A stretch of 64,000 bases of DNA, taken from the NCBI RefSeq assembly GCF_016026235.1, contig NZ_CP065613.1. One strand, given 5' to 3'. The first letter of the stretch is position 1. Every line of letters begins with the position of its first letter. The notes below the pieces were generated by a model. That model ran no database searches and had not been told where the DNA came from. It saw only the letters and a list, made by a program, of their open reading frames with translations. The position numbers and the translations under genes are program-made. This DNA is from Escherichia coli. GTDB taxonomy: Bacteria > Pseudomonadota > Gammaproteobacteria > Enterobacterales > Enterobacteriaceae. This document shows, in pieces, positions 1 to 3,088 of this stretch.

Positions 1-645
1 GCCAGAGCAAAAAATACTAAAGCTTTCCGTTTCACAAGTCAGGTTAATGACGCTATTAATCCTCCAAAACAACCAAGACAGCCACGAATTAGCGGAAACA
101 GAGCAATCACAGCAGCTTACTCAGCGAATATGAGCAAGCTAAAAGGCTTTGACCCTATTTTGCAGAAATACATCAAATCTCAATTTTACGGGCTATCTGC
201 TAAAGCTGGGGCAATGGATAATTCAAAATTCAATGAGAAGTTAGCTCAGTTAAATGCTTCAGTCAGAGAAGCAATTGCTAAAGCCAGAGGTCATACATCC
301 ACCAGCATTAATGGTGACAGAGCAGCTAGCAGCCTTGATAACCTGTCTTCAGCAGCAGTTAGAGCAGCAGGTGCATTTATCAGCTTTCAGGCTGTACTAT
401 CCGCTTATCAGCGAGTACTGGAAGTTGGTTTACAGCGTGCAAGTGCTGAACGTTCAATTGATTTCGTATTCGGTGACCAAAGTACACAGGTTAAAAAGTT
501 CATTCAGGATTTAACTCAAATTACTGGTATGGACACAACCGAAACACAAGCGCAATTTGCTTCATTTGGTGCATGAAGTGGCACACTGAATTTGGCCACC
601 TGAACAGAGGTGATATGCTCACCTCAGAACAACACAGGTGCTCCA

Positions 646-948
646 ATGAAAAAAAGAAATTTTAGCGCAGAGTTTAAACGCGAATCCGCTCAACTGGTTG
701 TTGACCAGAAATACACGGTGGCAGATGCCGCCAAAGCTATGGATGTTGGCCTTTCCACAATGACAAGATGGGTCAAACAACTGCGTGATGAGCGTCAGGG
801 CAAAACACCAAAAGCCTCTCCGATAACACCAGAACAAATCGAAATACGTAAGCTGAGGAAAAAGCTACAACGCATTGAAATGGAGAATGAAATATTAAAA
901 AAGGCTACCGCGCTCTTGATGTCAGACTCCCTGAACAGTTCTCGATAA
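646..948 (+). CDS. IS911 OrfA, transposase N-terminal DNA-binding subunit (100 aa)
   Basis: Begins [21 protein letters not shown], matching recalled IS911 OrfA. The ORF track begins 36 nt upstream at an in-frame M. Confidence 0.9.
897..903 (+). other. Programmed -1 ribosomal frameshift heptamer A-AAA-AAG of IS911
   Basis: AAAAAAG lies in the orfA frame as A AAA AAG within the orfA/orfB overlap; this is the known IS911 frameshift motif. Confidence 0.75.
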
Positions 949-974
949 TCGGGAAACTCAGAGCGCATTATCCT

Positions 975-1814
975 GTGGTCACACTCTGCCAAGTGTTCGG
1001 GGTTCATCGCAGCAGCTACAGATACTGGAAAAACCGTCCTGAAAAACCAGACGGCAGACGGGCTGTATTACGCAGTCAGGTACTTGAGCTACATGGCATC
1101 AGCCATGGTTCGGCCGGAGCAAGAAGCATCGCCACAATGGCAACCCGGAGAGGCTACCAGATGGGACGCTGGCTTGCTGGCAGGCTCATGAAAGAGCTGG
1201 GGCTGGTCAGCTGTCAGCAGCCGACTCACCGGTATAAACGTGGTGGTCATGAACATGTTGCTATCCCTAACTACCTTGAAAGGCAGTTCGCCGTGACCGA
1301 GCCAAATCAGGTGTGGTGCGGTGATGTGACCTATATCTGGACGGGTAAGCGCTGGGCGTACCTCGCCGTTGTTCTCGACCTGTTCGCAAGAAAACCAGTG
1401 GGCTGGGCCATGTTGTTCTCGCCGGACAGCAGGCTCACCATGAAAGCGCTGGAAATGGCATGGGAAACCCGTGGTAAGCCCGGCGGGGTGATGTTCCACA
1501 GCGATCAGGGCAGTCATTATACGAGCAGGCAGTTCCGGCAGTTATTGTGGCGATACCAGATCAGACAGAGTATGAGCCGGCGCGGAAACTGCTGGGATAA
1601 CAGCCCAATGGAACGCTTCTTCAGGAGTCTGAAGAACGAATGGATGCCGGTGGTGGGTTACGTAAGCTTCAGCGAGGCAGCTCACGCCATAACGGACTAT
1701 ATCGTTGGATATTACAGCGCACTAAGACCGCACGAATATAACGGTGGGTTACCCCCAAACGAATCGGAAAATCGATACTGGAAAAACTCTAACTCGGTGG
1801 CCAGTTTTTGTTGA
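975..1814 (+). CDS. IS911 OrfB, transposase catalytic part, expressed as an OrfAB fusion by -1 frameshift
   Basis: IS3-family integrase-type ORF in the -1 frame relative to orfA. The reading frame is expected to be entered at the slippery site near 897-903 rather than at the listed M. Confidence 0.85.
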
Positions 1815-3088
1815 CCACTTCAGCAAGTGCAACGACTACGATGGGTCTTGAAGGGTCAGAAGAGCTATTTAAAAACCTTACAGGTTATGCTCGTTTAATG
1901 GGGCGTTCAGATGAGCAGATTCAAAGAGCATTAACCGCAGTGTCACAGATGGCCTCTAAGGGTCAGGTGATGGCTGAGGAGTTGAAGGGGCAATTATCTG
2001 AAGCTTTACCGGGTGCTACTCAGGCATTTGCAAAGGCTTTAGGTCTGACTGAAAAACAGCTTTTCGATAAGATGAAAAATGGTGATGTTAAAGCCTCTGA
2101 TGCACTTCCTAAGTTTGCTAAAGAACTTGGTGCACAGATTAATTCAAGAGGTGGCTGGAAAGCTATTCAGGATTCTACGCAGACGATGTTAGGAAACTTA
2201 AAGAATACTTGGAACAACTCACTAACGGATATTTTCAGAGGTTCTGAAAATGGTCTGCAAGATTTCACAAGAAGCCTAACAACGCTTTTAAACAGTTTAG
2301 GTGGAAGTGGTAAAAGTCTTGGTGAATCTCTTGGTAGCTTGATGAGCGATATGTCGCATGGTGTCGATAGTCTGACTGATATCAGCTACAGGGTGAGAGC
2401 GTTCTTTGATGAGGTGACATTAGCTTACCGTGGTTTAACCGATGAGCAAAAGAAAGTAGTTGATGCTTTAGGTTCTGGCTTGATTAATAGTTTAAAAGTC
2501 TTGGCTGGTGTTATTGCTGTAAATAAAGTTGTTGGTGTAACCAGAAGTATTTACGGGCTTATGACTGCTATCACAAGATTAGGTCAGGTCGCTGATACAA
2601 CAGCGGATAACGTGAATAGAAAGAATGGGAAACCATCAAGATTGAATCTTGGGAATATGCTATTAGCTGGTAGCGCTCTCTATGCAGGTTATGAAAGATT
2701 AGCCTCTACACCTGAACGAATGGAAGCACAAGCTAAATTACCAGAGCTGGCTAAAGAGTCTGGACTTAAACCCGCTTTCACTATGGATGATGTTAAAGGG
2801 TGGTTTAATAGTGCTGCTATGAATCTTGCTAACTTCCAGCATCCAGAATTAAACAACATTAAGCAAGATTCAGCATTAACGAGTGCAGATATCCAAAGCC
2901 TGAGAGATGAAATCTCCGCTTTGAGCAAACGTATTCAGGAGCCTGTGAAAGTTTCACTTGGTGGTGAAGTTGCCATTAAACCAGATGAAACCAGCTTTAT
3001 GACCTTTAGCAGTAATATCTACGACCAATATGCAGAAGCTACGCTATTAAGTTCATCATTCCCAGAAGATGATTAATAATAGTCGAAT

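Follow-up and report, generated by a model that had tools for sequence, protein, structure and literature searches.

A single copy of IS911 has almost certainly transposed into a tape-measure gene of 682 codons in Escherichia coli, between codons 266 and 267, with duplication of the trinucleotide GCA, and has since been inherited in a small clade of this species. The stretch of DNA analysed (the window; 64,000 nucleotides of contig NZ_CP065613.1, assembly GCF_016026235.1) is E. coli chromosome, carrying mdtG/lpxL, solA, the flg genes and rne. The interrupted gene lies at its left edge, on an island that separates the two halves of mdtG. The coordinates of the features are collected in Table 1.

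Table 1. Features of the IS911 insertion and its surroundings (positions are those of the window)
Feature	Position	Strand	Remarks
Tape-measure gene, 5' part, codons 76-266 of 682	1..573	+	first 75 codons lie to the left of the window
Target-site duplication, left copy, GCA	571..573	.	single GCA in the empty site of L001
IS911 (IS3 family), complete, 1249 bp	574..1822	+	99.9% full-length matches to annotated IS911 copies
IRL, left terminal inverted repeat, 36 bp	574..609	+	24/36 match with IRR
orfA, 100 aa + stop, HTH_Tnp_1	646..948	+	ORF reading and Pfam
A-AAA-AAG programmed -1 frameshift heptamer	897..903	+	PGAP 'programmed frameshift' in a 99.9% identical copy
orfB part of OrfAB, -1 frame, rve DDE core	903..1814	+	Pfam rve
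IRR, right terminal inverted repeat, 36 bp	1787..1822	-	24/36 match with IRL
Target-site duplication, right copy, GCA	1823..1825	.	single GCA in the empty site of L001
Tape-measure gene, 3' part, codons 267-682 + stop	1826..3076	+	100% identical in L008-L012, L016, L017
Dit-like 'baseplate' gene	3188..3997	+	Pfam Dit_like; comparison with intact L010 copy
ISEc12 (IS21 family), about 2577 bp	3920..6496	+	boundaries ambiguous by 1-2 nt
Large serine recombinase, apparently intact	6561..8096	-	Resolvase, Recombinase and Zn_ribbon_recom in homologue and L019
mdtG 5' remnant, right end of island, then lpxL	8114..8311	-	L019 18340-18537 mapped; weak MFS_1 match

The evidence that decides the matter is the empty site. 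In E. coli D10 (L001), the homologous gene reads ...TTCATTTGGTGCAAGTGCAA..., with one GCA, and this is exactly the sequence obtained when the two flanks are joined in silico. A 3-bp repeat flanking the element would by itself be expected by chance with a frequency of 1/64; the empty site in homologues is the decisive evidence for insertion. The original prediction had taken the GCA at 571-573 and 1823-1825 for a target duplication, and this holds, both copies being present in the window and the empty sites of homologues carrying a single GCA.

The identity of the element was established separately from its flanks. When positions 574-1822 were compared by megablast with 5426 complete E. coli genomes, the segment aligned end to end (query 1-1249), at 99.5-99.9% identity, with annotated copies. 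The matched copies bear the annotation 'IS3-like element IS911 family transposase' and occur in many unrelated contexts. Since the end-to-end matches occur in many different contexts, the boundaries of IS911 are fixed independently, and the predicted identity and limits of the element are borne out by the 99.9% end-to-end alignment. IS911 was present at 80% query coverage or more in 1799 of the 5426 genomes, with up to 25 IS911-related places per genome; a second IS911 was searched for in the window and none was found.

The internal organisation was also as had been predicted, i.e., IS911-type OrfA and OrfB, the heptamer and imperfect terminal inverted repeats, all verified at their coordinates, with the repeats matching at 24 of 36 positions. 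On direct reading, the element starts with TGAAGTGG and finishes with CCACTTCA, the ends thus being TG...CA. A script check placed the heptamer AAAAAAG (897-903) in the A_AAA_AAG register of the orfA frame, and the frame offset by -1 (orfB) is open from 891 to 1814. When a -1 slip was simulated, an OrfAB of 389 aa was obtained, in which HTH_Tnp_1 and rve both scored above the Pfam cut-offs (rve 107 bits against a cut-off of 32.6; rve_3 40 bits).

IS911, a member of the IS3 family, is said to have been characterised by the Chandler laboratory. The copy in the window shares with it the 36-bp imperfect inverted repeats, the TG...CA ends, the 100-aa OrfA, the OrfAB frameshifted at A-AAA-AAG, the rve DDE core and the 3-bp duplication. 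The literature gives an OrfA of 100 aa, an OrfAB of 382 aa and inverted repeats of 36 bp (PMC2909936), whereas OrfAB of this copy has 389 aa and runs into IRR. If the A5 run at 1782-1786 had one more A, the element would be 1250 bp long and OrfAB would have 382 aa, ending in ...RYWKKL; the difference in length is therefore probably due to one fewer A in this run. This copy would then be the 1249-bp form; in a near-identical copy (L004), PGAP annotates this form, with a programmed frameshift and a product of 389 aa. The L004 copy ends in the same way, is flanked by a 3-bp repeat of its own, GGA, and differs in one base, C in place of the T at window position 1414. This T results in a private Ser257Leu change in OrfAB, located between the first and the second catalytic-motif region. 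With all its parts apparently intact, the copy in the window looks competent for transposition.

That the two flanks are parts of one gene was examined by joining positions 1-573 to 1826-3076. It had been predicted that deletion of 1252 bp would restore the reading frame, and the join yielded 607 codons followed by a stop, with 45 and 69 stops in the other two frames. The joined protein matched Pfam TMP_3 with 64.5 bits (cut-off 41) over residues 160-323, that is, across the junction at 191/192. Moreover, 13 of the 16 PHROG families matched by it are annotated as tape-measure, the best at 6e-64, and the tape-measure identity proposed for the split gene is confirmed by both collections. Uninterrupted homologues of 682 aa, annotated 'tape measure protein', are present in related E. 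coli chromosomes and are colinear with the joined protein, without a gap at the junction. The gene family was found in 404 of the 5426 complete E. coli genomes (about 7%), on chromosomes only, and at the nucleotide level the gene had no match in the plasmid collection.

The TGA at 574-576, with which IS911 begins, closes the 5' frame at once. The full N-terminal fragment (P0120) has 266 aa and ends in ...FASFGA; it was seen in L019 and on 20 contigs. For the remainder of 416 codons, the sole upstream start is a TTG inside IRR. As judged from these reading frames, the tape-measure gene is probably inactivated, leaving a stump of 266 aa and 416 codons devoid of a natural start. The closest intact relative of this allele has 94.5% nucleotide identity, and an identical uninterrupted allele was not found. 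dN/dS was 0.146 for the joined gene against intact alleles and 0.147 between two intact alleles, the range for the family being 0.15 to 0.28. These values show purifying selection on the gene family, and since 0.146 compares with 0.147, there is no detectable decay since the insertion.

Elements of the IS3 family move by a copy-out-paste-in route, and from what is established for IS911 and this family we infer the pathway of transposition. The OrfAB transposase would be made via -1 frameshifting at A-AAA-AAG. It would cleave one end of IS911 and join it to the other, so that a circular copy arises in which the ends abut, and these ends would attack the target with a 3-bp stagger, leading to duplication of GCA. 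The insertion cuts the gene within the conserved TMP_3 domain. The upstream part would stop at the TGA of IS911 and give a product of 266 aa with zero added residues, and the downstream 416 codons would lose their natural translation start.

The same insertion was found in at least about 20 contigs of other assemblies. Five of these assemblies (L008-L012) share the right junction (IS911 end, GCA, gene) at 100% identity, and L020, L022 and L023 share the left one, also at 100%, their contigs extending 27-74 nt into IS911. Over 2-10 kb, the identity of the assemblies sharing a junction with the window is 100%. In GCA_900449985.1 (L019), a contig of 4.56 Mb reproduces window positions 1-10575 except for one homopolymer base. 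The IS911 insertion has thus been passed on by vertical descent within a small clade of E. coli and is not private to this isolate. In GCA_012752895.1 (L021, L016), one contig ends at 572 and another begins at 1826, the latter continuing for 9.6 kb with zero mismatch and without ISEc12. Because this assembly breaks at the IS911 site while its ISEc12 site is empty, the IS911 insertion is older than that of ISEc12, 2 kb downstream. The insertion had been called simple and probably recent. Simple it is; 'recent' stands only in a relative sense, the insertion being present in the contigs of other assemblies and predating ISEc12, and the term would be fair only in evolutionary terms, as suggested by flanks that lack decay.

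Three other explanations were considered for the same arrangement. IS911 might have come to lie between flanks that were originally not adjacent, through homologous recombination between copies or an IS-mediated rearrangement, and with up to 25 IS911-related places in an E. coli genome the substrates for this do exist. Recombination between copies would give unmatched flanks, whereas the flanks observed carry a perfect 3-bp repeat and rejoin in one frame, colinear with intact homologues; the probability of this explanation is negligible. An assembly artefact, in which a repeated IS was misplaced into the gene, has an equally negligible probability. Misassembly is typically caused by IS elements, and when compared with GCA_900449985.1 the window is off by one homopolymer base elsewhere. 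However, both junctions are 100% identical in independent short-read assemblies, two of them from public runs (Logan set), and the 266-aa N-terminal fragment occurs on 20 contigs. As both junctions recur in independent assemblies, the artefact is ruled out.

It could also be asked whether the site is a preferred target of IS911, so that the insertions in the several assemblies arose repeatedly and not once. The bases to the right of the insertion (GCAAGTGCAAC) share, on direct reading, the core AAGTG with the IS911 end TGAAGTGGCAC. A contig carrying a different island allele, 88% identical and at another chromosomal site (L018, GCA_040571715.1), starts at the window equivalent of 1827, 1 nt off, and homologous genes have been struck by ISEc52, IS3, IS2 and IS100. 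Against this, the 100% identity over 2-10 kb among the assemblies sharing the junction fits common descent, IS911 is at the site in 0 of the 5426 complete E. coli genomes, and the insertions of the other elements are at other codons. The coincidence in L018 is weak, since contigs commonly break in this gene family and do so at many different places; the relatives obtained in a protein search with the N-terminal fragment were all truncated, at very diverse lengths, and do not speak for or against a hotspot. A scan of metagenome contigs for IS911 within about 25 nt of the site found nothing. Repeated insertion is accordingly quite improbable, and a single insertion followed by common descent is the reading that we retain.

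The interrupted homologues comprise L005, L006 and L007 together with hits H68-H74, H81 and H82. ISEc52 interrupts the homologous tape-measure gene in TUM9757, IS3 and IS2 in XH2172, IS100 in EC147566, and IS2 in several further strains. Because different IS elements and different codons are involved, these are independent events. The gene family broken is the same as in the window, but the elements and the codons differ.

A second element, ISEc12, lies downstream of the split gene. From 3920 onwards its sequence takes the place of the final ~14 codons of the Dit-like gene, so that the product has 269 aa, compared with 257 aa for the intact one. It is flanked by CAGGTAGT at 3912-3919 and 6497-6504, and its site is empty in the near-identical L010 and L016. 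In L010 and in Ryan-0026 (L003), ISEc12 is found instead in the recombinase gene, at the window equivalents of ~7828 and ~7758. It may be noted that the A-run of istA at 5465-5470 is A5 in the window and A6 in L019, which makes the istA ORF 466 aa long and not 513. This is the sole difference from L019 in 10.6 kb, and it reflects a true frameshift or else an error in sequencing the homopolymer.

The island itself lies between the two halves of mdtG and measures ~11 kb when the two IS elements are subtracted (window 1-8311; L019 3100-18537). The truncated mdtG on its other side was seen in L003 and L019. The island is integrated into mdtG by the large serine recombinase, a protein of 509-511 aa with Resolvase, Recombinase and Zn-ribbon domains. 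In L019, the island begins with genes for a small serine recombinase, a Dam-type methylase, a winged-helix protein of 311 aa and several small proteins unassigned in function, and ends with those for proteins of 236 aa and 68 aa, the tape-measure protein, the Dit-like protein and the large serine recombinase. An HNH endonuclease is present in some variants of the island. Related islands were found elsewhere on the chromosome, at yciI-tonB in D10 and near wrbA/yccJ in L018, and in FDAARGOS_1252 a related island adjoins a truncated DUF72-domain gene.

The winged-helix protein gave a sub-threshold match to DnaD_N. Inside its gene there is an array of about 4 copies of a 22-bp repeat with the core TTACTCAGTCAGTCAA (L019 6034-6122), which could be an origin with iterons. 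No head, capsid, terminase, sheath, tube or lysis gene was recognised in the island in L019, L001 or L003; a complete prophage is ruled out for an island of ~11 kb devoid of head and packaging genes. The left 7 kb of the island had no match among phages, the PADLOC defence models matched its proteins only with an orphan methyltransferase, and Rfam returned nothing for window positions 1-9000.

The tape-measure and Dit-like genes are the only genes of the island that find phage relatives, and both find them in virulent Felix O1-like phages. The tape-measure gene stands directly upstream of the Dit-like gene, an order also found in Felixounavirus (e.g., SP116 ORF81/ORF82). The tape-measure protein of the island has 682 aa, compared with 748 aa in the Felix O1-like phage, and is homologous to it throughout, with an identity of 46% for the first 81 aa and of 29% for aa 199-682. 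The Dit-like protein is much closer, with 69-81% amino acid identity to the product of the Felixounavirus gene directly 3' of the tape-measure gene, and ~89% nucleotide identity over 544 nt (window 3217-3760; L013 7515-8312). It was the only match when this gene region was compared with the phage collection at the nucleotide level. The contrast between ~89% nucleotide identity for the Dit-like gene and only ~30% identity between the adjacent tape-measure proteins suggests a recent exchange of the Dit-like gene alone. Unlike a Felix O1-like phage, the island has recombinases and has no head, sheath, tube or packaging genes, and its other genes had no match in the genome of a Felix O1-like phage.

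Phage satellites are known that combine such genes. It was shown recently that the PLE satellites of Vibrio cholerae code for tape-measure, chaperone and baseplate-hub proteins of their own, used in chimeric tails (PMC11838301), and mycobacterial EPIP satellites have a tape-measure protein and a serine integrase. Like PLE, the island is small and chromosomal, has a large serine recombinase, and carries tape-measure and baseplate-type genes related to those of a virulent myovirus, the tape-measure protein being shorter than that of the phage; the likeness is one of gene content. It differs from PLE in that the tape-measure gene in the window is broken by IS911, and no tail chaperone or capsid-remodelling gene was recognised in the island. 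Tai tail-assembly inhibitors, considered as a counterpart, are unrelated small proteins. No description of such an E. coli element or of a Felix O1 satellite was found in the literature. By analogy with PLE and ICP1, it may be conjectured, though we consider it rather unlikely, that these islands of ~11 kb are an undescribed family living off virulent Felix O1-like myoviruses, either as satellites or as parasites that interfere with the tail. They would contribute a baseplate protein and a tape-measure protein shorter than that of the phage, with which chimeric tails would be built or sabotaged. If that were true, IS911 here and the other IS elements elsewhere would be disarming the island.

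The IS911 insertion itself is an ordinary one of an already known kind, in which a known IS, with the standard duplication, has turned an accessory gene into a pseudogene. Its main use is that of a clean lineage marker, and for annotation it means that two gene fragments should be treated as one pseudogene. The island may merit a separate look, as it joins a large serine recombinase to just two tail genes, both Felix O1-like, and thereby echoes the tape-measure proteins of PLE.
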